From NCBI GenBank assembly GCA_948470565.1, contig CAOKPF010000001.1, forward strand, positions 5,866 to 69,865: a stretch of 64,000 bases of DNA, read 5' to 3'. Of the stretch, positions 4,759 through 62,124 are shown one piece after another. How positions within the stretch are numbered: position 1 is the stretch's first letter; each line of letters starts with the position of its first letter. A program made the position numbers and the translations under genes. This stretch comes from an uncultured Clostridium sp. (GTDB lineage Bacteria > Bacillota > Clostridia > TANB77 > CAG-465). Under the pieces are notes generated by a model. The model had not been told where the DNA came from. It was given only the letters and a program-made list of their open reading frames with translations, and made no database searches.

Positions 4759-4823
4759 TAAAAAATATATAATTGTAATTGAAAAAGTATTTAGTATTTG
4801 GTATAATAATAAACATATGAGGG

Positions 4824-7676
4824 ATGGATATGAAAATAAATAGAAATAAAGATTTTGATTCAACGCTTAATCTTCCAAAAGAAACTATATCTATAATAAG
4901 TGATTTAATAAAGAAAGAAAAATATTTTTTAAATAGCATACAAGATTATAAAAAATATAATAATGCTATCGAGAAGAATAAATTAAATGGCAAAAATTAT
5001 AATTTAGCAAGTATTCCTTTTGAAATAAATGATAAAAGTACTCCAACCCAATTAATTAACTCAATTTACAAAGATATATATATAAGACATCAGATAATGA
5101 TGGGTAACATTATAACTCATCATATAAGTTTTATTGAAAAAGGTAGTACTAATAATGAAAAGGTCAATGGTTTAAAATTAAAAGAGCAAGTAAAATATAA
5201 AAATATAAAAGAAGATGAATTAAAAGATACTACTAAAAATATTATACATGAAATAAAAAAAATGGGGGTAGTTAGCAACTATAATAATAATATAGAAAGT
5301 AGTTTTGATGAAAATACTGAAGAAAGAGTAGTTGAAAATTTTTTTAAATCATATAAAAATGGTAATATATACAAGCAGATAAGACCTGTTCATTGGTGTA
5401 CTAAATGTAAAAGTGAAATTTCACAAAGTGATGTTATAATACAAAAGGCTAGAAAAAATAATGTATATATAAAATATCGAATTAAAAATTGTGGAGAGAT
5501 TTATGAGGCAATAAATCCAAATGAAGAGATGTATTTTATTGTTGCAACAATAAGACCTTGGGTTCTTGAATCTAGTGATAGTATAGTTGCATGTAAGAAT
5601 ATGGAATATAGTATAGTAAATGTAACAGAAAATAACAAGAGTATTTACTATATTATAGCTTCTGAATGTGTAGATACTGTAATGGAAAATGCATTCTTTC
5701 TTAGATATAATATTATAAAAAAAATAGATGCAAGTAAGCTACAAAATATTATATGTTATAATCCATTAGATGAAAATAGAGAAGTAAAATTAATATATTC
5801 AACTCGTGAAAAAATAATGATAAATGATAATGATTTTACAGGGATAAATGTTGTTTCTAATACACATACATATATTGATTATTTAATAGAATTAGAAAAT
5901 AATATTGATAATTTAAAATCAATTATAGATGGTGAAGGAAATGTATATCCAAGTACTATAAAATTTAATGGTAAATTTTATAAAGATGTACAAAAAGATG
6001 TAGTAGATTACTTGAAAGAAAAGGGACTAATTTTATCTGTAATGCCAATAACTACATCTATAAATAAATGTAGTACATGCAAAACTGAACTTGTATATAA
6101 AATTGCTAATGAATGGTATATAAAAAGAGATAATGAGGTAAAAGATGAATTAAAAAATGCAATTTCTAATATAAAAAATGTGCTGAAAATACAGGATAAT
6201 AGTTTAAAAAATAATGTATTTGATATGCTTGATAAAATAAGTTTGAAAGATGAACTAAAAATTTCAGTTAATAAAAAAATTGGTATACCAATTCCTATGT
6301 TTTTCTGCGCTGATTGTGGTAAATATTTAAGTGGTGATAAATATTTTGAAATAATAAGGGATTGTATTGGGAAAAATGGTATATCTTCATTGTACAATAT
6401 GACACCTGATCAAATTTTAGGTAAAGAAATAGTATGTGAGTGCGGTAGTAATTTTTTCTTTAAAGATGATGGGGTATTTAATAATACATTTATATTATCA
6501 TCAATGCAATTTTTAAGTAAGAGTGAACAACAAAAAAGTGATGCAAATATATGTATAGCAAGTTCAAAGGAATTTTTAAAGCAAGTTTATAGTTTAAGTT
6601 ATAATAAAACAGGAGTAGAAAATTTAAGTAAATTAGATTTAATTTTAGTACATTCTGGAATTAATGAGAATATAAAAATTGTAACAATACCAATATTTTT
6701 TGATAAGTACGATGAAAATTCGTTAAGTGATTTAATTACACAAAATATAGGAATAAATGATGTAGTAAAAAAATATAGTACAGATGTATTAAGATTATGG
6801 GCAATGTCTGTTTTTAATGAAAATAATGTAAAATTAGAGGAACAAGATATTGTAAAAATAAATTCAGATTATTTAAATATAAGAAGATGTTTAAAGTATA
6901 TTTTATCAAATTTATATGATTTTATACCAGTAAGAAATTACATAGAAATAAATGATAGAACTGATTTAGATAAGTATATATATACAAAATTATATGATTT
7001 GAATGTTAATATAGATTTATGGTATGAAGATGGAATGTATAATAAAGTATATAAAGAAGTTTTTAATTTTTGTAAAAATTTCTTAACACGAGACTATTTT
7101 TCAACTTTAAAATATAGGTTATATATCTTAAGTGAAGATGATAAGATAAGAAGAAGTACACAGTCAACTTTACATGATATTTTAAATGCTTTGGTATTAT
7201 GGTTATCGCCAGTAATTCCATTTACCATAGAGGAGATATGGCCTTTCGTATGGAATAAAAATAATGATGAACAAATAAATGTACTTATGTATAGAAATGA
7301 ATTAAAAGAATACGATTTTAGAGATGTAATAGATAAATGGGATAAAATATTTGATTTTAAAAGAAAAATTACAAGGTATATAGAAAATGCCAAAAAAGAT
7401 AAAGTGATAGAAAATACATTTCAAGCTAATGTTTTGTTACAAACAACACCAAAGTCAGTTGAATTTATAAATGATAATAAAGATGAAATAGTGAGGGCTT
7501 TAAATATTTCTGAAATTGAGGCAGAAGAAAGTAATAAAAGATCTGTGAAAATTACAAAAACGACAGCACAGATGTGTCCTAGGTGTCGTAATTATACTGA
7601 TTCAATTGGTAAGTTATTGGAGTATAGATATTTGTGTGAAGATTGTGCTAAAATTTTAGTTAGCAAGAAAAGCTAG
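4824..7676 (+). CDS. isoleucyl-tRNA synthetase paralogue lacking HIGH and KMSKS motifs (predicted non-catalytic)
   Basis: Collinear similarity to IleRS along the full length: STLNLPKE N-terminus; KQIRPVHWCTKCKSEISQSDV versus the PVHWC.xC zinc-knuckle region; RPWVLE versus TTPWTLP; IGIPIP versus WGVPIP; TDVLRLWAMS versus GADILRLWVAS; ALVLWLSPVIPFTIEEIW; C-terminal CPRC...CEDC zinc finger. In place of HIGH the sequence reads KSTPTQL, and in place of KMSKS it reads DENSLSD. Confidence 0.75.
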   Translation: MDMKINRNKDFDSTLNLPKETISIISDLIKKEKYFLNSIQDYKKYNNAIEKNKLNGKNYNLASIPFEINDKSTPTQLINSIYKDIYIRHQIMMGNIITHHISFIEKGSTNNEKVNGLKLKEQVKYKNIKEDELKDTTKNIIHEIKKMGVVSNYNNNIESSFDENTEERVVENFFKSYKNGNIYKQIRPVHWCTKCKSEISQSDVIIQKARKNNVYIKYRIKNCGEIYEAINPNEEMYFIVATIRPWVLESSDSIVACKNMEYSIVNVTENNKSIYYIIASECVDTVMENAFFLRYNIIKKIDASKLQNIICYNPLDENREVKLIYSTREKIMINDNDFTGINVVSNTHTYIDYLIELENNIDNLKSIIDGEGNVYPSTIKFNGKFYKDVQKDVVDYLKEKGLILSVMPITTSINKCSTCKTELVYKIANEWYIKRDNEVKDELKNAISNIKNVLKIQDNSLKNNVFDMLDKISLKDELKISVNKKIGIPIPMFFCADCGKYLSGDKYFEIIRDCIGKNGISSLYNMTPDQILGKEIVCECGSNFFFKDDGVFNNTFILSSMQFLSKSEQQKSDANICIASSKEFLKQVYSLSYNKTGVENLSKLDLILVHSGINENIKIVTIPIFFDKYDENSLSDLITQNIGINDVVKKYSTDVLRLWAMSVFNENNVKLEEQDIVKINSDYLNIRRCLKYILSNLYDFIPVRNYIEINDRTDLDKYIYTKLYDLNVNIDLWYEDGMYNKVYKEVFNFCKNFLTRDYFSTLKYRLYILSEDDKIRRSTQSTLHDILNALVLWLSPVIPFTIEEIWPFVWNKNNDEQINVLMYRNELKEYDFRDVIDKWDKIFDFKRKITRYIENAKKDKVIENTFQANVLLQTTPKSVEFINDNKDEIVRALNISEIEAEESNKRSVKITKTTAQMCPRCRNYTDSIGKLLEYRYLCEDCAKILVSKKS

Positions 7677-15809: not shown

Positions 15810-16145
15810 TTAAGTAACAAAAAAATTCCAAATTATCATACATACCATACCCATTGGAAATGAAAATGTATAAGTAGCAATAGGCAGCCAATAAACGATA
15901 TGTTTATATTGAGTATTGATTTTTTTATTTAATGCAACACAAATTGTAATAAAGGATATGAAAATAAAATGGTATACCCCAGCTTCAATATATGGACCAA
16001 ATAAGTAAGTAAAAAAATACCCATTTTCAAAACATTCTTGTTTAGCTTTTTCCAAATTACACTGTCCAATGAAAAATTCAAATAAAAATAATGATACAAT
16101 GTATAATAATATTATTAAAAGTTTATTCTTTGTTTTTTTTGACAT
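15810..16145 (-). CDS. small 3-TM membrane protein, paralogue copy 4 (diverged C-terminus)
   Basis: About 95% nucleotide identity to the three upstream copies. GGGAGG RBS then ATG (MSKKTKNK...). The last ~8 residues differ (IWNFFVT). Confidence 0.7.
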   Translation of the reverse strand: MSKKTKNKLLIILLYIVSLFLFEFFIGQCNLEKAKQECFENGYFFTYLFGPYIEAGVYHFIFISFITICVALNKKINTQYKHIVYWLPIATYTFSFPMGMVCMIIWNFFVT

Positions 16146-16235
16146 AGTCATACCTCCCAATTTTTAATGAATTTTATTGTAATAGCAAATTTATTGACGA
16201 CATTAAAAATAAATCTTTAATATTTTTGTTTTTAT

Positions 16236-16583
16236 TTATCCAATAATATATGTTTCAAAAAAATTACCGATTATCATACATACCATACCCATTGGAAATG
16301 AAAATGTATAGGTAGCAATAGGTAGCCAATAAATGATATGTTTATATTGAGTATCGATTTTTTTATTTAATGCAACACAAATTGCAATAAAGGATATGAA
16401 AATAAAATGATATACCCCAGCTTCAATATATGGATAAAATACGTAAAGTACAAAATATCCATTTTCACCATATTCTTGTACCGCTTTTTCAAAATTACAT
16501 TCTCCAACGAAAAATTCAAATAAAAATAATGATATAATGTATAATAATATTATTAAAAGTTTATTCTTTGTTTTTTTTGACAT
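16236..16583 (-). CDS. small 3-TM membrane protein, paralogue copy 3
   Basis: Tandem 438-bp unit. Start at MSKK after GGGAGG (ORF track extends to 16598). Confidence 0.7.
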   Translation of the reverse strand: MSKKTKNKLLIILLYIISLFLFEFFVGECNFEKAVQEYGENGYFVLYVFYPYIEAGVYHFIFISFIAICVALNKKIDTQYKHIIYWLPIATYTFSFPMGMVCMIIGNFFETYIIG

Positions 16584-16673
16584 AGTCATACCTCCCAATT
16601 TTTAATGAATTTTATTGTAATAGCAAATTTATTGACGACATTAAAAATAAATCTTTAATATTTTTGTTTTTAT

Positions 16674-17021
16674 TTATCCAATAATATATGTTTCAAAAAA
16701 ATTACCGATTATCATACATACCATACCCATTGGAAATGAAAATGTATAGGTAGCAATAGGTAGCCAATAAATGATATGTTTATATTGAGTATCGATTTTT
16801 TTATTTAATGCAACACAAATTGCAATAAAGGATATGAAAATAAAATGGTATACCCCAGCTTGAAAATATGGATAAAATAAGTAAGTAAAAGAGTACCCAT
16901 TTTCAAAACATTCTTGTTCAGCTTTTTCAAAATTACATTCTCCAATGAAAAATTCAAATAAAAATAATGATACAATGTATAATAATATTATTAAAAGTTT
17001 ATTCTTTGTTTTTTTTGACAT
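16674..17021 (-). CDS. small 3-TM membrane protein, paralogue copy 2
   Basis: Tandem 438-bp unit, identical RBS/start context. Confidence 0.7.
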   Translation of the reverse strand: MSKKTKNKLLIILLYIVSLFLFEFFIGECNFEKAEQECFENGYSFTYLFYPYFQAGVYHFIFISFIAICVALNKKIDTQYKHIIYWLPIATYTFSFPMGMVCMIIGNFFETYIIG

Positions 17022-17111
17022 AGTCATACCTCCCAATTTTTAATGAATTTTATTGTAATAGCAAATTTATTGACGACATTAAAAATAAATCTTTAATATT
17101 TTTGTTTTTAT

Positions 17112-17459
17112 TTATCCAATAATATATGTTTCAAAAAAATTACCGATTATCATACATACCATACCCATTGGAAATGAAAATGTATAGGTAGCAATAGGTA
17201 GCCAATAAACGATATGTTTATATTGAGTATCAATTTTTTTATTTAATGCAACACAAATTGCAATAAAGGATATAAAAATAAAATGGTATACTCCTGCTCC
17301 AATATATGGACCAAATATGTAAGTAAAAAAATACCCATTTTCAAAACATTCTTGTTCAGCTTTTTTAAAATTACATTGTCCAATGAAAAATTCAAATAAA
17401 AATAATGATATAATGTATAAAATTATAATTAAAAGTTTATTTTTTGTTTTTTTTGACAT
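17112..17459 (-). CDS. small 3-TM membrane protein, paralogue copy 1
   Basis: First copy. Its start abuts the stop of the upstream 342-aa gene, suggesting translational coupling. Confidence 0.7.
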   Translation of the reverse strand: MSKKTKNKLLIIILYIISLFLFEFFIGQCNFKKAEQECFENGYFFTYIFGPYIGAGVYHFIFISFIAICVALNKKIDTQYKHIVYWLPIATYTFSFPMGMVCMIIGNFFETYIIG

Positions 17460-17461
17460 AG

Positions 17462-18490
17462 TCATACCTCCCAATTTTTGATATTGAACTTAATTGTAAT
17501 AGCAAATTTATTAACAACTTTACATGAAGTACCTATCATTGCTAAATTATTACCAAAAGACGCAAAAAAAACTTTAGCATAATCATCATTGTTTATATAT
17601 TTTTCTATTTCTTGGAACTCTGTAAAATCATAAATATCTGATAATTCTATATCCAAATTCCAATTTCCGTTATTTTGTTTGTTTCCACAAATGTTTATAT
17701 AGCTATTGTGTAGTGCTAGAAACAGATCACCACTTTCAAAAGCTAATGATTCATTATTTTTACCTGTATTAAACTGTTCCTTATTACCATATTTTTTAAT
17801 AATTTCATTTACTTTATTTTTAAAATAAATATTTTCCTTTATTTTTTCTACAACTTTTCCCTCTGTAATAATTATATCACTAGGCTTTTTTTGTAATGAA
17901 TGATTTAAAAATTCAGAGGATATATCATAATTACCTAGTTTTAGAACTAGAACTGCACATTTTAATATATAATGTTGTAACATTTGGGTCATATCAGATA
18001 AATAAGGTTTTTTATTATAATATTTACTAAATGCAAAGTTAACAATGTTAAATGAAATATTTTGAATATCATCATATTCACCATTCATTACTTTTTCGAA
18101 AATTTCTTTATATTCCTTATATTTTTTATTAATTTCTGATGATTGTTTAAGCGTAATAGCATTATTACTATATAAATTTTTGGAAGTAGTAGTACTATTT
18201 ATTATATCAATATCTTTTTGTAATAATTTCTTATATTTATCATAACAACTCAAAGGTACTTCATTTAATAAATTTAAGGTTAAGTATCTATTTGTTAATA
18301 TTTGTCTTTGAGCAGTAGGCAAATTTTTCTTATTACATAATTTTAATATTTTTTTATTTAGTAACTCCTCACCTTTTAGATTTTTTACATCAGAAATATT
18401 TATAGAACAACACATTTTCTTTAAGCAACCTAAACCAAATGTATATTTGGTATTGCTAAGTTCTCTACCACATAGAGTACATCTTTTCAT
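17462..18490 (-). CDS. hypothetical cytoplasmic protein with N-terminal CxxC...C..C zinc-ribbon
   Basis: 342 aa, MKRCTLCGRELS...GLGCLKKMCC. Extended -10 (tggtataat) and GAGGTGA RBS upstream. No other motif recognised. Confidence 0.6.
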   Translation of the reverse strand: MKRCTLCGRELSNTKYTFGLGCLKKMCCSINISDVKNLKGEELLNKKILKLCNKKNLPTAQRQILTNRYLTLNLLNEVPLSCYDKYKKLLQKDIDIINSTTTSKNLYSNNAITLKQSSEINKKYKEYKEIFEKVMNGEYDDIQNISFNIVNFAFSKYYNKKPYLSDMTQMLQHYILKCAVLVLKLGNYDISSEFLNHSLQKKPSDIIITEGKVVEKIKENIYFKNKVNEIIKKYGNKEQFNTGKNNESLAFESGDLFLALHNSYINICGNKQNNGNWNLDIELSDIYDFTEFQEIEKYINNDDYAKVFFASFGNNLAMIGTSCKVVNKFAITIKFNIKNWEV

Positions 18491-23869: not shown

Positions 23870-25159
23870 ATGGTAATGGGTAAAATTTATTTAGAAAAAG
23901 ATGTAGTAACTGCTGCAATAGAGAGGTTAGAGTACGTTTTTAACAATTTTGACAATGTATATTTTAGTTTTAGTGGTGGGAAAGATAGTTCAGTAATGTT
24001 GCAGCTTGCAAATCAAATAGCAAAAAGATTAAAGAAAAAATTTGATGTATTATTCATAGACTTAGAAGCTCAGTATAAACTTACTATAGAGCATGTAGAA
24101 GAAATGAAAAAACTTTCAAGAATAAGATATTTTTATCATATAGCTTTACCACTTGCACTTAGAAATTCGGTATCTGTATTACAACCAAAATGGACATGCT
24201 GGGATGAAAATTCTAAAGATTTATGGGTTCGTGATTTACCTAAGGATAGTATAAATATTTACAATTGTCCTATAAAAGATTTTAGAGTTGGAGAGGAGTT
24301 TGAAGAATTTGTATTGCAATTTGCAAAATGGTATCAAAATGAGCATGGTGGAACTTGTGCTTGTGGTGTTGCAATACGTGCAAATGAAAGCTTAAATAGA
24401 TTTAGGACTGTTGCAAAAAAGATAAAAAAGAGAATGTATAAAAATATTATATGGACTACTGAGATAAAATATAGGAATTATTTAGATGTATATAACTTTT
24501 ATCCAATTTATGATTTTACAACAGAAGATATTTGGGGAATTGTAAGTAAATTTGATTTTGAGTATAATAAAGTTTATGAATTACTGTATAAAAATGGAGT
24601 TCCAATAGCTCAGCAAAGACTTTGTCAACCATATGGAGATGATCAAAGAAATGGTTTAGATCAATTTAGAGCTTTAGAACCAGAAACATGGGAGAAAATA
24701 TTAAATAGAGTAAATGGTGTAAATTTTGGAAATATATATTGTAAGACTACAGCATTAGGAAATTTAAGAACCTCTAAACCAGATTTTATGACATGGGAGG
24801 AATATTCGGTATATTTATTAGAAAGTATTGGAATATATAATAAAGAATTGATGATACATTATTACCATAAGATTAAAAAATTTATGAATTGGTATGAAAA
24901 AAAAGAAGGTATTACAGTAAAGGATATTCCTCAAGAAGCGGATATTAAACTTGAAGGTAGAAAAAAGGTTATAAGTTGGCGTAGAATTGCTAGAAGTTTA
25001 GAAAAAAATGATTTTTATATGAGAAGGCTTTGTTTTTCTCAGACTAAAGGTGATGAGGAAAAACTAAGAAAATTTATGAAAAAATATCAAAATTTCCTTA
25101 CTTCTGAAACTGATACAGATGAGGATTTAATACAAATTGCTATTGAGGAGGGATATTAA
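23870..25159 (+). CDS. PAPS-reductase-like PP-loop protein (IbrA-like)
   Basis: SFSGGKDSSVML PP-loop. Roughly 430 aa with a long C-terminal extension as in the IbrA/DUF3440 family. Paired with a ParB-like gene. Confidence 0.6.
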   Translation: MVMGKIYLEKDVVTAAIERLEYVFNNFDNVYFSFSGGKDSSVMLQLANQIAKRLKKKFDVLFIDLEAQYKLTIEHVEEMKKLSRIRYFYHIALPLALRNSVSVLQPKWTCWDENSKDLWVRDLPKDSINIYNCPIKDFRVGEEFEEFVLQFAKWYQNEHGGTCACGVAIRANESLNRFRTVAKKIKKRMYKNIIWTTEIKYRNYLDVYNFYPIYDFTTEDIWGIVSKFDFEYNKVYELLYKNGVPIAQQRLCQPYGDDQRNGLDQFRALEPETWEKILNRVNGVNFGNIYCKTTALGNLRTSKPDFMTWEEYSVYLLESIGIYNKELMIHYYHKIKKFMNWYEKKEGITVKDIPQEADIKLEGRKKVISWRRIARSLEKNDFYMRRLCFSQTKGDEEKLRKFMKKYQNFLTSETDTDEDLIQIAIEEGY

Positions 25160-25647
25160 TGAAAGATATAGAATTTCCAGTATTAGATGTAAAAATGGTC
25201 GATATTGACAAAGTAATTTCAAATGATTATAACCCAAATAGAGTTGCAACTCCTGAATTAGTACTATTAAGAAAATCAATTGAAGCAGATGGCTATACTC
25301 AGCCTATAGTTACATATTATGATAAGAAAAATGATAAATATATAGTAGTAGATGGGTTTCATAGATATAAGTGTGCCAAAGAGTATTTCTTTTTAAAGGA
25401 GATACCAGTTGTTACTATAAATAAAGATTTAAAGAATAGAATGGCGTCAACTATAAGGCATAATAGGGCACGTGGAACACATCAGATTGGAGATATGTCA
25501 AAGATAGTAGTAACATTATTAAAAAAAGGTTGGTCAGATGAAAAAATATGCATAGAACTTGGAATGGAATTAGATGAAGTTATAAGATTAAAACAAGTAA
25601 GTGGGTTAAAAGAAGCTTTTGCTGATCACAAATTTAGTAGAACATAG
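25159..25647 (+). CDS. ParB-like nuclease domain protein (IbrB-like)
   Basis: ParB/Srx fold motifs: DYNPNR...GYTQPI...DGFHRY. Start overlaps the stop of the upstream gene (ATGA). Confidence 0.6.
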   Translation: MKDIEFPVLDVKMVDIDKVISNDYNPNRVATPELVLLRKSIEADGYTQPIVTYYDKKNDKYIVVDGFHRYKCAKEYFFLKEIPVVTINKDLKNRMASTIRHNRARGTHQIGDMSKIVVTLLKKGWSDEKICIELGMELDEVIRLKQVSGLKEAFADHKFSRT

Positions 25648-33537: not shown

Positions 33538-34347
33538 ATGAGTGAGAAAACTAAAATTGTAATAGTAGACGATAACAAAGAATTTGTAAGATTGTTAAGT
33601 CTATATATGAATTCCCAGGAAGATATGGAAGTAGTTGGGGTTGCGTATGATGGTAAAGAAACTGTTGAATTAGTTAAAGAATATAACCCTGATATATTAT
33701 TATTAGATATAATTATGCCAGAAAGAGATGGTATATCAGTATTAGAAGATTTAATGAAACAAAACTTAAATCATGAATTACTTACAATAGTTATGTCTGC
33801 AATAGGACAAGAAAAAATTACACAAAAAGCAATATCGCTTGGTGCAACATATTATGTGGTAAAACCATTTGATATGTCAACACTAGCAAATCGATTAAGA
33901 GATTTACTTGAAAGCGATGATGATGATAGATGCACAATGCCAACGGCTTATTATTCAAAAGAGAGGGATATTCCCAAAAGTAATCTACCTGTAGAAGTTA
34001 GAGTTACTAATATCATTCATGATGTTGGGGTACCTGCACATATAAAAGGTTACCAATATATAAGGGAGGCAATAGTTCTTGCTATAGAAAATGAAGATAT
34101 TATAAATGCTATTACTAAGACTCTTTATCCTACACTTGCAAAGAAATTTTCAACAACTCCGTCAAGAGTTGAAAGAGCAATTCGTCATGCAATAGAAGTT
34201 GCATGGAATAGAGGACAAATTGAGATGCATGATAAGATATTTGGTTACACTGTAAATTCTAATAAAGGAAAACCTACTAATTCAGAATTTATTGCAATGA
34301 TTGCTGATAAAATTAGAATGGAAACAAAAGCAGTTGTAAATGTATAA
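33538..34347 (+). CDS. spo0A: stage 0 sporulation protein A
   Basis: REC domain (IVDDN...LLLDIIMP). Spo0A_C with [20 protein letters not shown] and ...[17 protein letters not shown]. Confidence 0.9.
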
Positions 34348-51062: not shown

Positions 51063-51740
51063 ATTTTATATGTATGACGGGCATGTCATAAATCTAGGGT
51101 GAAAGTCCCAAGAGGCGTATTTGTCGCGAACTCGATAGCAACTTGCAAAGCGTAAACCAGTAATGGAGCGTGAAAAGAAGCAATAGCGAAATCGTGGCTC
51201 TATGAATAAGAACTTGATATTAAGGCTTATTAGATGGATAAGTTGCCAAAACACAACAAAGTCCAAAAGACAAACGTAAATCTAATGGGTAAATCAAGAG
51301 AGTAAACGAGGAAAGAGTTATGACTTATCCCGTGAGGTCCTATAAGCGAATAAGTAGTAACAACGAATTATAGGAAGTCAGCAGAAGTCATAGTAGGTAG
51401 GAAACGAGCCAATAAAGGAAAGGAAGTCTCACGAATACTGAAGGACTGAACAATTTATAAGACTATGGAAGTCTTGAAATCTCTTGCAATTATCAGAATA
51501 AATAAAGATGAGAGGTTGAGCGTATCTTAATGGGTAATCCAAGAGATGATGTTGCAAGATAACGAAAAGAAAGGAAATAGACAAGCTATGAAAAAAAAAA
51601 ATAAAAAGCTAGGACGAAGAGGATTAGTTTTTGCCCTAGATTATTATTTAGCTTGAAATCAAACTTATAAATTGAACCGCCCATTGTCGAACAGAACGAT
51701 GCGGTGGTGTGATAGGGGATGAAAATTTTATTTTATAAAA
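51063..51740 (+). ncRNA. candidate large structured noncoding RNA (identity unresolved)
   Basis: About 700 nt with no credible ORF. GC content is markedly above the local background. The + strand is purine-rich. Internal near-repeats (cttaatgggtaa(a)tc(c)aagaga x2) and five RRAAGTCY motifs; several local hairpins. Confidence 0.4.
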
Positions 51741-56960: not shown

Positions 56961-57836
56961 TTATGAGAGTTTATTGGGCATAATTTTGTTATTGTTTAAT
57001 CTCTTCGGGTTTAATTCCCCGACGCTTGCGTCGTAACAAACTAGGCAAACATTACGAAGTTTTGTTTGCTGGGGCGAATACCCCGCTCTCGAAGAGAGGC
57101 AAACATCTTTTCTAGATGTTTGAGGGCTTGCCCCGGGGAAGTTTATTATATTAAACATTTCTGTGATAAAAATTTTTGAAGTTGGACGTGAATAGGGGAA
57201 AAAATCATTTAAAACACTAGGAGTTGTATACTTATTCATTGTTGAAATAGATTTATCAATTGCCCATTTTACATGTAGATTAGATTTGGCATTATTTTCA
57301 TTTGCTATTATTTTATATAATTCCTTTTCAAATGGAGTAATAAGAGAGTTTTTATTTAAACAAATCTTTATACATTCTACTATGTACAAATAACCAGGAC
57401 TGCTTTTATTAAAATAGAAATTATTTAAAAGTTCTGATATCTTTGTTATAAAATCATTATTTTTTATCTTTTCTTCTATTATATTTAATTTATCTATAAG
57501 TTTATCAAAATCAAAAGGTTTTGTTAAAATTTCAGATATAGGAATATTAAGTCTTACTAATTCTTGCATTAAATAGGGGTCTCCTGTAATGATTATTATT
57601 TCTGGAAAATTTTTAATATCCTTTATTTTATTAATAAGTTCTAATCCATTTAGTTTAGGCATTTTTAGATCTAGTATCATTATATCAAATGAATTTGTTA
57701 TTAAATTTTTATATGCCTCTTCACCATTAATTGATATATTACTTACTATGAATTTATTTCCAGTGCTATTGTTAATATAGTTGAATATATTTTTTACAAA
57801 GTTTAAATCATCATCAACTATTAAAATCTTCTTCAT
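56961..57836 (-). CDS. Spo0A-like response regulator paralogue (REC + divergent Spo0A_C)
   Basis: REC domain (ILIVDDD...DIMILDLKMP). C-terminal similarity to Spo0A_C: GYLYIVECI versus GYLYLREAI; ELYKIIANENN...VKWAIDKSI versus VLYPDIAKKYN...VERAIRHAI; F.Y....K......F. It lacks the [12 protein letters not shown] helix. The last ~55 codons read through a GC-rich hairpin element and are probably not native. Confidence 0.6.
   Translation of the reverse strand: MKKILIVDDDLNFVKNIFNYINNSTGNKFIVSNISINGEEAYKNLITNSFDIMILDLKMPKLNGLELINKIKDIKNFPEIIIITGDPYLMQELVRLNIPISEILTKPFDFDKLIDKLNIIEEKIKNNDFITKISELLNNFYFNKSSPGYLYIVECIKICLNKNSLITPFEKELYKIIANENNAKSNLHVKWAIDKSISTMNKYTTPSVLNDFFPYSRPTSKIFITEMFNIINFPGASPQTSRKDVCLSSRAGYSPQQTKLRNVCLVCYDASVGELNPKRLNNNKIMPNKLS
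56985..57165. other. GC-rich nested-hairpin element (two tandem ~45-nt hairpin modules)
   Basis: Hairpins cgacgcTTgcgtcg, gcaaac..gtttgc, ggggCGAATAcccc, ctctcGAAgagag, caaacatc..gatgtttg, ccccgggg. Two aggcaaacat modules. GC content far above surroundings. Confidence 0.45.
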
Positions 57837-57959: not shown

Positions 57960-58344
57960 ACCTAAATTATAAGTTTATAATTATATGTATAAAAATTGTA
58001 ATTTTGTATAGAATAAATGTTAAAATAGTATACTTTAATATGTTATTTAATAGTTGGTATTTTGTATATGTATTTTTTATTGCTAGTATTTTCATAATAT
58101 CCCCTCCTTTATTTATATTAAAAAAATTATACAATATTTTTAATCGTCATTCAAATATTATGGAAGAAAATAGAAAAAAATAGAAAAAAGTAGATATTTT
58201 CAATTATATATACATATGTAATATGCTAAAAATTACATTATTTTAAATGAGCTTAAATTTTATTTTCTAATTTGTTGCAAAAATAAATAAAAACTATTGA
58301 CAAATAGCAAAAAATATAGTATTATATATACGCAGATTGGTTAT

Positions 58345-58420
58345 GGGCTATTAGCTCAGTTGGCAGAGCACTTGACTTTTAATCAAGTTGTCCGCAGTTC
58401 GAACCTGCGATAGCTCACCA
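58345..58420 (+). tRNA. tRNA-Lys (anticodon UUU)
   Basis: Cloverleaf: acceptor GGGCTAT/ATAGCTC, anticodon stem cttga/tcaag with loop cTTTtaa, T-arm GTTCGAAC, 3' CCA encoded. Promoter TTGACA-17-TATTAT at 58291. Confidence 0.9.
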
Positions 58421-58518
58421 ATATACCTATATTTTAGGTAAATGTTATAGAACTTTTAGCATTTAGTAATAAATGTTGAAAGTTTTTTTAAATTTATTTT
58501 TTATTAAGGTGGAAAAGT

Positions 58519-59580
58519 ATGTTTGAAAAATTAGAAGAATTATTAAAAAAATATAATGATTTGACAGAAAAAATATCAGATCCAGATGTAATAGCAGATC
58601 AGGAAGTTTGGAAAAAGTATATGAAAGAGCAATCTGCTATGAAAGATGTAGTGGATAAATATATAGAGTATAAAAATATAGAGGATAATATGAAAGAAGC
58701 AAAGGAACTTTTAAATGATCCTGAAATGAAAGAAATTGCAGAAGAAGAATATTATTCAAGTAAAGAAAAATTAACAAGTATGGAAGATGAGTTAAAGATA
58801 TTACTTCTACCAAAAGATGTTAATGATGACAATAATGTAATTATAGAAATAAGAGGTGGAGCAGGTGGTGAAGAGGCTGCGTTGTTTGCATATAATTTAT
58901 ATAGAATGTATACAATGTATGCTGAACTTAAAAGATGGCAAATAGAAATAATTGACATGAATGAAACAGGAATTGGTGGTTTAAAAGAAGTGTCATTTAT
59001 GCTTAAAGGAAAAGGAGCATATAGTAGACTTAAATTTGAAAGTGGTGTTCATAGAGTACAACGTGTTCCTGAAACTGAAGCAAGTGGAAGAATTCATACT
59101 TCAACAGTTACAGTTGCGGTTTTACCTGAAGTAGAAGATGTTGAAGTGGAAATTAATCAAAACGACCTTAGGATAGATACATATAGGGCTAGTGGTGCAG
59201 GTGGCCAGCACGTAAATAAAACATCATCTGCTATAAGAATAACTCATATTCCTACTGGAATTGTTGTTGCTTGTCAAAATGAGCGTTCACAGTTGCAAAA
59301 TAAGGAAACTGCAATGAAAATGCTTAGATCGAAACTATATGAAAAAAAGCAGGAGGAACAAGATAGTAAACTTGCACAGACTAGAAGATTGCAAGTTGGA
59401 AGTGGTGATAGAAGCGAGAAAATTAGAACGTATAATTATCCTCAAAGTAGAGTAACAGATCATAGAATAAATGTCACTATATATCAATTAGAAAGTTTTT
59501 TAAATGGTAATATAGATGAAATGATTGAAGCGTTAATTGCAGCAGATAGAGCAGATAGATTAAAAGAAGGAAATATATAG
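58519..59580 (+). CDS. prfA: peptide chain release factor 1
   Basis: PET tripeptide (RF1 PxT), [23 protein letters not shown] motif. 353 aa. Confidence 0.9.
59490..59580 (+). repeat. direct repeat copy 1 (native 3' end of prfA)
   Basis: 91 bp identical to 60653-60743. Confidence 0.85.
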
Positions 59581-59907
59581 TGTATTATATGGATATAGAT
59601 TTTTTATAATTTACTCTAACTAAAAACAAATAAAAAATATAATAAAAATTATCTTGAGCGTAAAAAGCCCAAGATTTTATTTTTATGAAAAAAGAAAAAT
59701 TATCAATTGCTTCTTGAGAGTTAAATCTTCACTCCATTTAATTCATAGAAACGATATTAAAAATATGTATAATAAACGAATAATTAAAAAATTATTATAT
59801 TTTATATGAAGTTTCTGAAAAAGTCCTAAAAAATTTTATAACAATTTTTTCAAGGCTCATATTTGTACTTTAAAGGCTTATTCTTTATAAAATATTGGTG
59901 AAAATGA

Positions 59908-59936
59908 TTGACAAATAGTATAAAAATGGTTATAAT
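59908..59936 (+). promoter_or_regulatory. promoter of the toxIN-like module
   Basis: TTGACAaatagtataaaaatggtTATAAT (17-nt spacer). Confidence 0.55.
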
Positions 59937-59942
59937 GAATAT

Positions 59943-60065
59943 AATAGGAATAGATATTTAATATCTATTTACAGTTTACAGTAAAAAATCAGGTGAACCC
60001 TACCAATAAGTGGGAGCTGTAAAATCAAAAGGTGGAGATCTAGGTCTTTACCTTTATATTTTTTA
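59943..60065 (+). ncRNA. type III antitoxin RNA (ToxI-like repeats) with short terminator
   Basis: Repeat 1, AGGTGAACCCTACCAATAAGTGGGAGCTGTAAAATC (59991-60026), closely resembles the ToxI 36-nt repeat AGGTGATTTGCTACCTTTAAGTGCAGCTAGAAATTC. A degenerate second repeat AGGTGGAGATCTAGG follows, then the hairpin aggtCTTTacct plus T-run, directly upstream of toxN. Confidence 0.55.
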
Positions 60066-60075
60066 GGAGTAAAGA

Positions 60076-60606
60076 ATGAAATTATATGCAGTAACAGATG
60101 AATATATAGACTATTTAAGACAATTTGATTATAAAGTTTATGATAATAAAGAAGATAGAAGAAAAGTAATGAGAAAATATTTAGGTATAGTTTTAATAAT
60201 AAACGATATGAATTATTATATACCAATGTCATCTCCTAAAAAAAGTGATTATAAAGATAATCAAATAAGAAAATCTATTGTTCCTATTGTCAGAGTTGTG
60301 TCAAATGAAGAAATTTATAATGTACCAGTTTTAAAAGGAACATTAAGGATTAGTAATATGATACCTGTACCAGATAGTGAATTAATATTATATGAACCTA
60401 AATATGAAAAAAATAAAAATTATAAGATATTGGTTGAAAAGGAACTTGAATTTATTGGAAAAAATGAAGAAATGATAAAGAAGTATGCAAGTATTATATA
60501 TAATCAAAAAATTAATAATTATGATGTATCTTATATAAAAAATGTTGTTGATTTTAAGTTATTAGAAGAAAAATGTAGAGAATACCAAAAGGCTAAAAAC
60601 AACTAA
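60076..60606 (+). CDS. toxN: type III toxin-antitoxin endoribonuclease toxin ToxN/AbiQ family
   Basis: MKLYAVTDEYIDYLRQFDYKV...YLGIVLIINDMNYYIPMSSPK matches AbiQ/ToxN N-terminal conservation (MKFYTI..YI.YL..FD.KV...GIVLEI...Y.APLSSPK). 176 aa. Confidence 0.75.
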   Translation: MKLYAVTDEYIDYLRQFDYKVYDNKEDRRKVMRKYLGIVLIINDMNYYIPMSSPKKSDYKDNQIRKSIVPIVRVVSNEEIYNVPVLKGTLRISNMIPVPDSELILYEPKYEKNKNYKILVEKELEFIGKNEEMIKKYASIIYNQKINNYDVSYIKNVVDFKLLEEKCREYQKAKNN

Positions 60607-60652
60607 AATATTAATTAAATGTTTTCATTAAGAATTAGGCAATGTAGCTACA

Positions 60653-60743
60653 AGAAAGTTTTTTAAATGGTAATATAGATGAAATGATTGAAGCGTTAAT
60701 TGCAGCAGATAGAGCAGATAGATTAAAAGAAGGAAATATATAG
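60653..60743 (+). repeat. direct repeat copy 2 (orphan duplicate of prfA 3' end)
   Basis: Identical 91 bp encoding the last 30 codons of RF1, with no start codon. Followed by the terminator at 60755-60790 (ttggaataa..ttattccag + T7). Confidence 0.85.
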
Positions 60744-60846
60744 TAATATTAATATTGGAATAATTTAGTTTATTCCAGTATTTTTTTGAATACGTAGAAA
60801 ATTTTTCTGATTTATAGTATAATTTTTTCTAGTAGGAGGATAAAAG

Positions 60847-62124
60847 ATGTTGTATGAATTATTTATACTATGGTTTGTATTATTGTTTATTATGCAAATA
60901 GTTTATTTATTTAAATCTATTAAAACAAAGTATAATAAAAATTGGATAATTCTATTCATTTCTTGTATTTCATCAATATTTAGTGCTATATTACTTTGTA
61001 TTTATTCCTTATTTAATGCACCTTATCTTGGTTGGAATGTTTTGTTAAACTTTTTTCTAGGTGGGGGAGCAGTCATTAGTTATGTGATTGTATTATTAAT
61101 TAGTACAATATCAAAACTTGTAGAGAGAATAAAAGATAAAAAATTAAATATTAGTAGAGAAAAACTAGAAAAAAATGTTATTAAAAAAACTATATGCGGT
61201 ACATTTTTAACAATATTTTTAGTATCAACCTGTATATATGCAGTAGACTATTCTATATGTATAATTCAGGAAAAAATAGACTTAAAAAAAGAAGAGGAGC
61301 AAAAAATAAGTAAAGAAAAAGAAATGGTAGAATATATTAACAATAAATATGAACTTAGCCTTAGTATTAATGATATAATTTATTATAGAAAAGAAGATTA
61401 TAGTGCAGATATAGGATTGTTAGCAACAAGAAAAAATAATATCCCAAATATTGCTATATTTAAAAATAATACTCAAAAAATTACTGTTATTGATAGAAAG
61501 GGATTTTTTTCTGATGATGGACAACTAAAACAAATTAATTATTATATAGCAGATTATTTTAGCAAAATTGTTGGAACTGATATAGAATTTGTTCAAGTGA
61601 GAAAAACATATAATGGAAATATTGAAGATGGCACAATAAATGAAGTTTTACAGTATGGTTTTAATGAAAAGATAACAAGCTATAACATAAATAGATTTAT
61701 AGATTATTTACTTTCAGAAGAGGATTTAGAATTAATTTTCTATATTAAAGATAGCGAAAACAGAACGGACTTGATTAATTTACTTACTGATAAATTAAAT
61801 TATTTAAAAGAATACAAAAATATTGAGAGAGTAATGTTTTATATATACGATAAGAATGAAACTTTAATAGTAAATAATATTGAAAATGACTTAATAGCTC
61901 TTGATGGTAAAAAAGAACGTGATTTTAAATTTGATTATTATTACGTACCAAATAAGTATGAGTATTACTATCCAGAAACTAGTAGTACTGCCTATAAATT
62001 TAAAGATGAAAAATTTAATACTTTTTTAGTATCGGCTTATTTGACTTTAAATAGAGGATATGGAGCTGGTCAAGGAAATAGGCAATATAGTGTGAAAAAT
62101 GGTTGGTATGTATTTGTATACTAA
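60847..62124 (+). CDS. hypothetical membrane protein
   Basis: Four N-terminal TM helices plus a ~280-aa soluble domain. No recognised motif. Confidence 0.45.
   Translation: MLYELFILWFVLLFIMQIVYLFKSIKTKYNKNWIILFISCISSIFSAILLCIYSLFNAPYLGWNVLLNFFLGGGAVISYVIVLLISTISKLVERIKDKKLNISREKLEKNVIKKTICGTFLTIFLVSTCIYAVDYSICIIQEKIDLKKEEEQKISKEKEMVEYINNKYELSLSINDIIYYRKEDYSADIGLLATRKNNIPNIAIFKNNTQKITVIDRKGFFSDDGQLKQINYYIADYFSKIVGTDIEFVQVRKTYNGNIEDGTINEVLQYGFNEKITSYNINRFIDYLLSEEDLELIFYIKDSENRTDLINLLTDKLNYLKEYKNIERVMFYIYDKNETLIVNNIENDLIALDGKKERDFKFDYYYVPNKYEYYYPETSSTAYKFKDEKFNTFLVSAYLTLNRGYGAGQGNRQYSVKNGWYVFVY

Follow-up and report, generated by a model that had tools for sequence, protein, structure and literature searches.

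We analyzed 64,000 nucleotides of DNA from an uncultured Clostridium species (contig CAOKPF010000001.1; hereafter, the window) and found that the 3' end of prfA, which encodes peptide chain release factor 1 (RF1), is present twice, with a type III toxin-antitoxin (TA) cassette of the ToxN/AbiQ family (toxIN) between the two copies. The first copy completes an intact prfA. The insert between the copies is 1,071 bp long (59582-60652), its sole gene is toxN, and its G+C content is 21.6% (vs. 26.1% for the window). The explanation that we favor, with a probability of about 0.4, is that a circular element integrated site-specifically within the duplicated segment and that its integrase was then lost, which would leave a relic similar to a cis-mobilizable element (CIME).

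The two copies of the prfA end, at 59490-59581 and at 60653-60744 (both in the plus orientation), are exact direct repeats (92/92 identical). An earlier interpretation that was made from the letters of this stretch (the sequence-only reading) had reported an exact duplication of 91 bp. The exact duplication of the prfA end is present, and its length is 92 nt: 91 nt from the end of prfA, with its TAG stop codon, and one further base. If up to 3 mismatches are allowed, the window contains just these two copies (0 are expected, from 100 dinucleotide-preserving shuffles), and a relaxed blastn search of the window did not find a third or degenerate copy. Both edges of the repeat are sharp. For the 30-100 nt past each edge, local alignment scores are no higher than for shuffled sequence, and neither copy shows any similarity to the other past either edge. 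An apparent repeat family with "103 nt at 95%" is extension noise, because the alignments of the flanks score no better than shuffles. The shuffle tests also ruled out degenerate homology beyond the 92 nt, which could have hinted at an old, diverged duplication or at the untranslated region (UTR) of a related donor.

The prfA gene itself (58519-59580, plus strand) encodes 353 amino acids with Pfam matches to PCRF (E = 2.4e-75) and RF-1 (E = 2.6e-46). Along its full length, the protein is 83-89% identical to RF1 from related species that are represented by metagenome-assembled genomes (MAGs), and its length equals that of all close relatives. Copy 1 (attL-like) is the true 3' end of this intact gene, so the proposal that the first copy reconstitutes prfA holds up. 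Copy 2 (attR-like) is a displaced prfA end, and an in-frame TAG just 5' of it (60645-60647, as read from the sequence) makes it non-coding. Immediately upstream of prfA is a tRNA-Lys(UUU) gene (58345-58420, plus strand; found by ARAGORN, and 67 bits for the tRNA family of Rfam), and a scan for promoters gave an 11/12 match 5' of the tRNA, at 58297-58325.

The window comes from a ~90-kb (90,151-bp) MAG contig, which raises the question of whether an empty chromosome and a separate toxIN element with the 92-nt segment, either a small circle or at some other location, were threaded together through their shared repeat. An exact repeat of 92 nt is longer than common k-mer sizes, and closely related toxIN variants (L005, L121 and L125) co-occur in samples from one accession series (ERZ148648xx/ERZ148646xx). 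However, the exact 425-aa protein that is encoded downstream of the insert is also present on three other short contigs, which are from sister samples (L098, L099 and L100). L098 (ERZ14864794) starts inside toxN (100 nt of the cassette) and continues over the insert's right arm (46 bp) and the 92-nt copy 2 into 2.1 kb of chromosome, all at 100% identity to the window. The first base of L100 is precisely that of the repeat, and L099 begins inside the repeat. Breaks at or within the repeat could be seen as a sign of misassembly, but they are also the expected behavior of a true repeat in short-read assembly. The right junction was thus resolved independently, in a different sample; the left junction is supported by the 90-kb contig only, which resolves both junctions. 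(Bridging the 92 nt assumes 150-nt reads.) Furthermore, even if the contig were misassembled, a toxIN element with the exact 3' end of prfA must exist anyway, and the case for an attP-like segment would stand. We consider an artefact, which the sequence-only reading had named as a way in which it might be wrong, to be very improbable.

The cassette has all of the parts of a ToxN/AbiQ type III system that had been proposed for it: a promoter, a structured antitoxin RNA, a terminator, and a toxin gene. The toxN gene (60076-60606, plus strand, with the ribosome binding site GGAG at 60066-60069) is predicted to encode a 176-aa endoribonuclease toxin. The protein matches all of the ToxN_toxin family in Pfam (PF13958; profile positions 1-159 of 159; E = 2.7e-37; 128.8 bits, where the cut-off is 25) and the AbiQ model of PADLOC (E = 1.5e-42). 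It aligns end to end with proteins of known structure, namely AbiQ (PDB 4GLK, E = 1.8e-22) and three ToxN proteins (2XD0, E = 4.8e-16; 4ATO; and 7D8O). The catalytic motif S52-S53-P54-K55 aligns without gaps to T52-S53-P54-K55 of ToxN from P. atrosepticum (2XD0). At position 33, where ToxN has a catalytic lysine, the protein has an arginine, with Lys34 adjacent. (The roles of the catalytic residues, namely the Thr52/Ser53/Lys55 region and Lys33, are from PMC8860590.) Judging from these sequence features, the cassette is apparently a complete and functional toxIN/AbiQ-type (abortive-infection) module. The protein has 1,027 relatives in the databases (E <= 1e-5), and the 120 that were listed are 66-92% identical to it. 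One homolog (P0003, 230 aa) is 92% identical over 171 amino acids and has a GNAT acetyltransferase domain at its C-terminal end, either because the two are fused or because a frameshifted ORF reads on into a neighboring gene.

Upstream of toxN, a sigma-70-type promoter (59908-59936, plus strand) matches the consensus at 12/12 positions (TTGACA-17-TATAAT), and its -35 and -10 elements are conserved across the homologs of the cassette. The leader RNA (approximately 59943-60065) has a z-score of -3.8 for its minimum free energy (MFE) and comprises a 5' hairpin, a single 36-nt unit, and a terminator, all in the plus orientation. The 5' hairpin (59948-59970) has a 10-bp stem in the MFE fold; across 11 leaders, 96% of the cells for this stem are paired, and the length of the loop varies. 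The ToxI-like unit (AUCAGGUGAACCCUACCAAUAAGUGGGAGCUGUAAA, 59988-60023) is delimited by two AAAAU motifs that are exactly 36 nt apart. An intrinsic terminator or attenuator (60028-60065, with a 12-bp stem at 60028-60055 and a U-run) was identified between the antitoxin RNA and toxN, both by a terminator scan and by folding, and the first bases of its 5' arm (AGGUG) resemble the start of another ToxI unit.

Known ToxI and antiQ antitoxins are tandem arrays, with 2.8-5.6 repeats in the characterized systems, while the leader in the window has ~1.4 copies (one full unit, plus a partial head and a partial tail). Tandem Repeats Finder (TRF) did not identify an array with a period of ~36 nt within 59400-60900, even at its most permissive setting (a minimum score of 30). 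With the same settings, it does detect the antiQ array (35 nt x 2.9) and the array of Fusobacterium phage phiFN37 (39 nt x 1.9). Because there is no tandem array, we classified the cassette as a variant of toxIN with a single-unit ToxI. All 10 of the distinct leaders from this subfamily of ToxN have one full unit. Published surveys of type III systems demanded tandem repeats that TRF can detect (PMC3401426), so this subfamily would have escaped them. More broadly, type III systems are probably under-counted, because tandem-repeat surveys cannot detect a single-unit architecture, and this ToxN subfamily is common (at least 120 database clusters at 66% identity or above). The leader does not fit any curated RNA family either: for 58200-61000, and at E <= 1, Rfam has no matches besides the tRNA.

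We also checked if the proposed structure is maintained across genomes. In 11 distinct leaders from different genomes, 97.4% of the cells are paired, as compared to 41-52% if the partners are slid. The stem of the terminator is 98% paired. The 36-nt unit has two candidate pseudoknot stems, GGU/ACC and CCC/GGG, of 3 bp each. We found compensatory changes on both sides of four pairs: one in each of the pseudoknot stems and two in the terminator. The change in stem 2 is from L015 (CUC...GAG) and supports the pseudoknot register over the nested hairpin of the MFE fold; the change in stem 1 is from an orphan unit in L101 (described below). With so few sequences (11), we view the pseudoknot as likely, from this covariation, but not proven. 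The unit also shares AGGUGA..CUACC..AAG with the ToxI repeat of P. atrosepticum (whose sequence we took from a published primer, PMC5772629), and the AAAAU motifs that bound it resemble the cleavage consensus of ToxN enzymes, AA|AU and GAA|AU (PMC8860590).

By analogy to other toxIN systems, the consensus promoter would transcribe the leader RNA, and most transcripts would end at the attenuator (60028-60065), so that the antitoxin RNA would exceed the toxN mRNA. ToxN would cut the leader at the A-rich AAAAU motifs that flank the single 36-nt unit and would then bind the pseudoknot and be held inactive. If phage infection or loss of the locus were to halt the resupply of this labile RNA, free ToxN would cleave cellular and phage RNAs.

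Two side observations concern the antitoxin RNA. In the window, TTTACAG is present twice in tandem (59968-59982), just before the putative cleavage motif on the 5' side; this 7-nt duplication is absent from the 10 other leaders. At L101:6144-6240 (and also in L102, L103 and L104), an orphan and degenerate ToxI-like unit is followed by a terminator hairpin and a ribosome binding site. The orphan is ~80% identical to the real unit, which is 1.2 kb upstream. There is no toxN behind it, and a TelA-family gene lies just downstream. Perhaps a second cassette has decayed here, or perhaps the locus encodes an antitoxin only.

The toxIN module is not confined to this genome, and comparisons across genomes show which part of the insert is conserved. 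By blastn, the DNA that is shared with other genomes covers only ~59893-60599, and its edges are at ~59878-59901 and ~60584-60599 in every context. This corresponds to the promoter, the leader with its antitoxin RNA, and toxN (59893-60606, plus strand). The identity at the DNA level is 93-94% for L001, L122 and L125, 92% for L101, and 80-82% for L009 and L015. The sequence-only reading described a self-contained module of ~1.07 kb; its parts are all present within the 1,071 bp, but the conserved module accounts for only ~700 bp, and the arms on either side are unexplained.

The left arm (311 bp, 59582-59892) is AT-rich, is non-coding, and has no DNA match elsewhere: we found nothing similar in the other loci that contain the cassette, in RF1 loci, in plasmids, or in phages. 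We considered whether it might be a decayed gene, but a six-frame tblastn search gave nothing above noise. It includes a bidirectional terminator-like hairpin (59651-59675) with a U-run (59651-59687 in all; -8.1 kcal/mol), which was found by a terminator scan. A search for the pattern of this hairpin in metagenomic and viral contigs did not find it. Given its location, it would now be the first terminator 3' of prfA and may serve that gene. The right arm (46 bp, 60607-60652) does not have its own terminator and, aside from L098, which matches it at 100%, it is unmatched elsewhere. After copy 2, there is another hairpin with a U-run (60751-60787, plus strand), with a 13-bp stem (60751-60782; -13.1 kcal/mol). 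This is presumably the original terminator of prfA, and it would now be the first terminator after toxN. Thus, the terminator that was previously reported after copy 2 is there, but its "native" status is not borne out by any homologous region in relatives; because gene order around prfA is not conserved, the hairpin is not provable as native.

Two other origins for the insert were rejected. A transposon does not fit, as there is no transposase, there are no inverted repeats (at the ends of the insert, nothing rises above noise), and a 92-bp duplication far exceeds normal target-site duplications. Retrohoming of a group II intron yields no such duplications, and the intron fragment in the window (51154-51446) shares no sequence with the insert.

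In other gut Clostridia, the module is found in at least 8 unrelated chromosomal contexts. It lies after secA, in three arrangements (L001-L008, L101-L105 and L114-L121); between dprA and mutS2 (L009-L014); between the genes for a pseudouridine synthase and a methyltransferase (L015-L017); after a zeta-toxin-like kinase gene (L106-L113); after a 209-aa gene that adjoins a cation ATPase (L122-L124); and after a PIN gene (L125). In L001, secA is followed by a decayed integrase-like gene (integrase-N-terminal/NUDIX), a cupin gene, a 209-aa gene, toxIN, and then a displaced secA end (~70 nt, 80% identical). In L114, secA is followed by a DUF2000 gene, toxIN, a displaced secA end (74-86% identical), a complete tyrosine integrase, a NUDIX gene and, further along, a second integrase. 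In other words, L114 has a toxIN segment without an integrase, bounded by repeats of the target's end, in tandem with an element that does bear an integrase. The toxIN modules of these secA-end islands are 91-95% identical, at the DNA level, to the one in the window. More broadly, the 3' end of secA is a hotspot for integration in related gut Clostridia (L001, L002 and L114-L121), with accreted tandem islands that include tyrosine integrases, NUDIX, RhuM, SIR2 and HTH_17 genes, and with displaced secA ends that are 74-86% identical.

In L015, another solitary copy of the module is bracketed by a direct repeat of 28 nt (27/28 identical; 4777-4804 and 5720-5747). The repeat holds the -35 element and the spacer of the promoter of the downstream methyltransferase gene, so a functional target sequence was duplicated and preserved. 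At L009, L101 and L106, where the module is solitary, we found neither flanking repeats nor an integrase, so the module clearly also moves by routes that are not site-specific.

We did not find a close relative of this ToxN on a plasmid or a phage: the best hit is 46% identical (from Fusobacterium phage phiFN37), and AbiQ from pSRQ900 is 38% identical. The sequence-only reading had proposed to look in plasmids and phages for the same cassette with the prfA segment; searches of these collections returned only fragments of prfA or homologs of ToxN that were at most 46% identical. Scans of viral contigs with ToxN, with two sub-strings of the repeat, and with the ToxI unit found nothing.

To understand when the cassette arrived, we compared the window to 80 RF1 loci from species representatives. 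(The closest are 83-89% identical, and all of those are from uncultured gut Clostridia.) Each of the 80 loci has a single prfA 3' end, and no part of the insert is present in any of them. This agrees with the claim that the cassette is foreign to the site, and since the duplication is absent from 80/80 related loci, it is not ancestral at this depth; the scenario in which all relatives share it, which would have undermined the original interpretation, does not apply. The relatives do not give a strict empty site, however, because the gene order around prfA is not conserved: the relatives have neither the tRNA-Lys nor homologs of the window's neighboring genes near prfA. So, the proposed comparison succeeded in that the cassette is absent (0/80) and failed in that the synteny is absent as well. 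Nor can we compare strains of the same species, because the species has been sampled essentially once. Among 5.8 billion proteins, its RF1 is found on the source contig only, and the next best match is 89% identical. Look-ups by the exact ToxN and RF1 proteins gave no contig that encodes them, even though the clustered collection includes both. As a side note, none of 17 close relatives (L018-L034) has a tRNA within 4 kb of prfA or shares a flanking gene with the window, so the neighborhood of prfA is unusually variable across this clade.

How did the insert get there? The window is ordinary chromosome for a spore-former (it encodes YqfD, YbeY, IleRS, DnaX, RecR, LepA, Spo0A, RNase Y, GatB, ProRS, FtsK, Def and SleB/YpeB, among others). 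Among 44 open reading frames (ORFs) that were scanned in the window, which extends 59 kb upstream and 3.3 kb downstream of the insert, none matches a recombinase or transposase family in Pfam, so the statement that there is no integrase in sight is correct. Using three integrases from the islands as tblastn queries did not yield a match in the window either. The sequence-only reading invoked site-specific or Campbell-type integration; the gene-completing topology is as it described, and the mechanism itself is drawn from that topology only.

We propose that a small integrative island in circular form, for which a copy of the prfA end (92 bp) served as the attachment site, recombined with the chromosomal prfA within this segment. 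In the product, attL (copy 1) would complete prfA, the cargo would come next, and attR (copy 2) would be left over as a relic. The recombinase would most likely have been a tyrosine integrase that acted in trans or that was lost later, either through a deletion or because a tandem partner excised. The present insert would be a CIME-like element that kept attL and attR and whose integration genes are gone. As a consequence, prfA would now terminate at the hairpin that the insert brought along, and toxN would terminate at the old prfA terminator. Perfect 92-bp direct repeats that are 1.07 kb apart should be prone to deletion; TA addiction would oppose the loss of the insert by recombination between them and would select against cells without it. 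We favor this explanation because the same cargo travels in integrase islands at secA and because the repeat ends one base past the stop codon, as expected for a gene-completing attachment site that is borne by an element. The decay and tandem accretion of integrated elements are known to yield CIMEs at the 3' ends of housekeeping genes, where one of the repeats preserves the gene (PMC5704250).

Several observations weigh against this explanation. None of the 80 relatives has an integrase-bearing element that targets prfA (there is no integrase within 4 kb of any of these RF1 loci), although such an element could exist outside of these samples. The collections of plasmids, phages, viruses and metagenomes did not yield a free, plasmid or phage form. 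The repeat is long, at 92 bp, as compared to the 8-60 bp that is usual for elements that use tyrosine recombinases (PMC5704250). It is also perfect, whereas the repeats of the secA islands (~50-70 nt) are only 74-86% identical, and neither arm of the insert has anything in common with the arms of those islands. There is no empty site from the same species, and synteny around prfA is absent in relatives. Finally, the toxicity of the TA pair, its neutralization by a single unit, and defense against phage are predictions by analogy to known systems.

Integration might instead have been mediated by RecA. In this case, a non-replicating circle of ~1,163 bp from the same species would have entered by a single (Campbell-type) crossover within the 92 bp, and a site-specific recombinase would not be needed. 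The circle, with the cassette, its arms and one 92-bp segment, could have arisen from an earlier excision or from illegitimate circularization. For RecA, a homology of 92 bp should be long enough. One crossover that spans all of the shared homology would give copies that are 100% identical and similarity that stops abruptly, as observed; the lack of a recombinase in the window also fits, as does the contrast to the secA islands, which are associated with integrases and whose repeats have diverged. But this leaves unexplained how a circle with the exact 3' end of prfA first arose, such a circle is not found in plasmid, phage, viral or metagenome collections, and a right edge at one base past the stop codon is more naturally explained by a selected, gene-completing attachment site on an element. 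Overall, we think that a RecA-mediated crossover is possible but doubtful. Another route is an illegitimate or homology-facilitated insertion that duplicated the recipient's sequence at the target, by repair of a break, by template switching during replication, or by one-sided anchoring with an illegitimate joint 92 nt upstream of the end of prfA. If both copies derive from the recipient, then a perfect duplication is expected. The 28-nt repeat in L015 hints at target duplications of variable length instead of one fixed attachment site, and L009, L101 and L106 show that the module can be solitary, with no flanking repeats or integrase. Also, the left arm starts after the prfA stop codon and reaches a terminator ~70 nt on, much like the 3' UTR of a donor's prfA. 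However, such long target duplications are rare, and the edge at stop+1 would be a coincidence or else would require a donor from the same species with a different gene order. Little weight can be put on two examples of differing length, and the repeat of 28 nt may have nothing to do with the one at prfA. We consider insertion of this kind to be unlikely.

A more radical alternative is that nothing inserted into prfA: the arrangement of prfA, left arm and toxIN might be the older one, and the segment with copy 2 might have come from the right, by a rearrangement or with a larger island. It is consistent with this that synteny with relatives is missing on both sides of prfA, that the native terminator cannot be fixed by homology, and that the 425-aa membrane protein that is encoded downstream is the sole member of its cluster, with no relatives among genome contigs or JGI metagenomes. 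On the other hand, toxIN is the part that is demonstrably mobile (at least 8 contexts), there is no third copy of the repeat or boundary of an island to the right within the window, and the genes on the right are ordinary envelope genes (of the LCP family). This alternative seems highly improbable to us. A last idea, which we regard as a long shot, is that toxIN of this subfamily is a minimal mobile cassette that lacks a recombinase, relies on the recombination and repair of its hosts, is protected by addiction, and has a single ToxI unit that suffices as the antitoxin throughout the subfamily. If so, then the cassette would spread by picking up pieces of its targets (the 92-bp prfA end here, or 28 bp of a promoter in L015), and a single-unit antitoxin would serve a widespread subfamily of ToxN that repeat-based surveys have overlooked.

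How does the prfA insert compare to known systems? ToxIN from plasmid pECA1039 of P. atrosepticum and AbiQ-antiQ from plasmid pSRQ900 of L. lactis have the same ToxN/AbiQ fold and (T/S)-S-P-K motif and the same order of promoter, antitoxin RNA, intrinsic terminator and toxin gene. The unit of P. atrosepticum ToxI is 36 nt long, as in the window. But the protein from the window is only 33-41% identical to characterized members of the family, the leader has a conserved extra 5' hairpin before the unit, which ToxIN and AbiQ/antiQ do not have, and toxIN is chromosomal in these uncultured gut Clostridia instead of being on a plasmid. The toxIN-like locus of phage phiFN37 is the closest homolog that is annotated in the phage collection. 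Its toxin is of the ToxN family, and its antitoxin unit (AGGTGTTCCACCACC...ATAAATTC) is visibly related to the unit in the window and is followed by a terminator hairpin. Unlike the window, this locus has 1.9 tandem copies of its unit, which is 39 nt long; it is phage-borne, and it is not flanked by a duplicated gene end.

CIMEs, such as those related to ICESt1 and ICESt3 at fda (PMC5704250), are likewise short islands that are flanked by repeats, one of which completes the target gene, and they lack their own genes for integration or transfer, as does the insert in the window. The insert differs in that its repeat is 92 bp and perfect and in that it has no known cognate integrase or relative that targets prfA. 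It is also extremely small (1.07 kb, with a single cargo module). Campbell integration gives an identical topology, with identical direct copies around the incoming DNA, the first of which restores the gene. It is known mainly from suicide vectors in the laboratory and from the integration of plasmids or phages. A natural 1.16-kb circle with just a TA system was not found in the collections that we searched.

Nothing here is categorically new: this is a clean and slightly unusual case of the mobility of a defense module, along with an antitoxin architecture that was overlooked. A compact 700-bp toxIN module is found in at least 8 housekeeping neighborhoods, sometimes on integrase islands at the end of secA, and the prfA insert, at 1.07 kb and without an integrase, duplicates and so spares the end of an essential gene. 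Neither the mobility nor the single-unit antitoxin overturns current understanding, and both are testable refinements.

We noticed several other features of the window. Two ORFs match RF1 and ToxN in length (353 and 176 aa, respectively) by coincidence, and the proteins are unrelated. There are two regulators of the Spo0A type: a canonical one at 33538-34347 (Spo0A_C, E = 1.1e-45) and a divergent one near prfA, at 56961-57836 (E = 1.4e-08). The divergent ORF, which is on the minus strand, has an odd C-terminal tail that coincides with a GC-rich island (56998-57145; 43% vs. a background of ~20%). Each strand of the island folds into multiple hairpins (z = -3.6 and -4.3); the island occurs once in the window and, at E <= 1, has no match in Rfam. 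Possibly, this is a structured RNA that has not been described before, or else a small element that was inserted. The group II intron fragment at 51154-51446 comprises domains D1-D4 (Rfam RF02001, 97.9 bits, and RF01998, 38.8 bits). No ORF for a reverse transcriptase was recognized nearby, and its flanks encode an unassigned 321-aa protein and an HD-domain protein. At 23870-25647, a PAPS-reductase/DUF3440 protein is followed by a protein with a ParB_N domain. These have weak PADLOC matches to BrxP and DndC, so the pair may be related to DNA modification or defense. Finally, a tandem repeat at 15818-17512 (3.9 copies of 438 bp, at 94% identity) gives rise to three ORFs of equal length (120 aa) on the minus strand and adjoins a 342-aa ORF that does not match Pfam.

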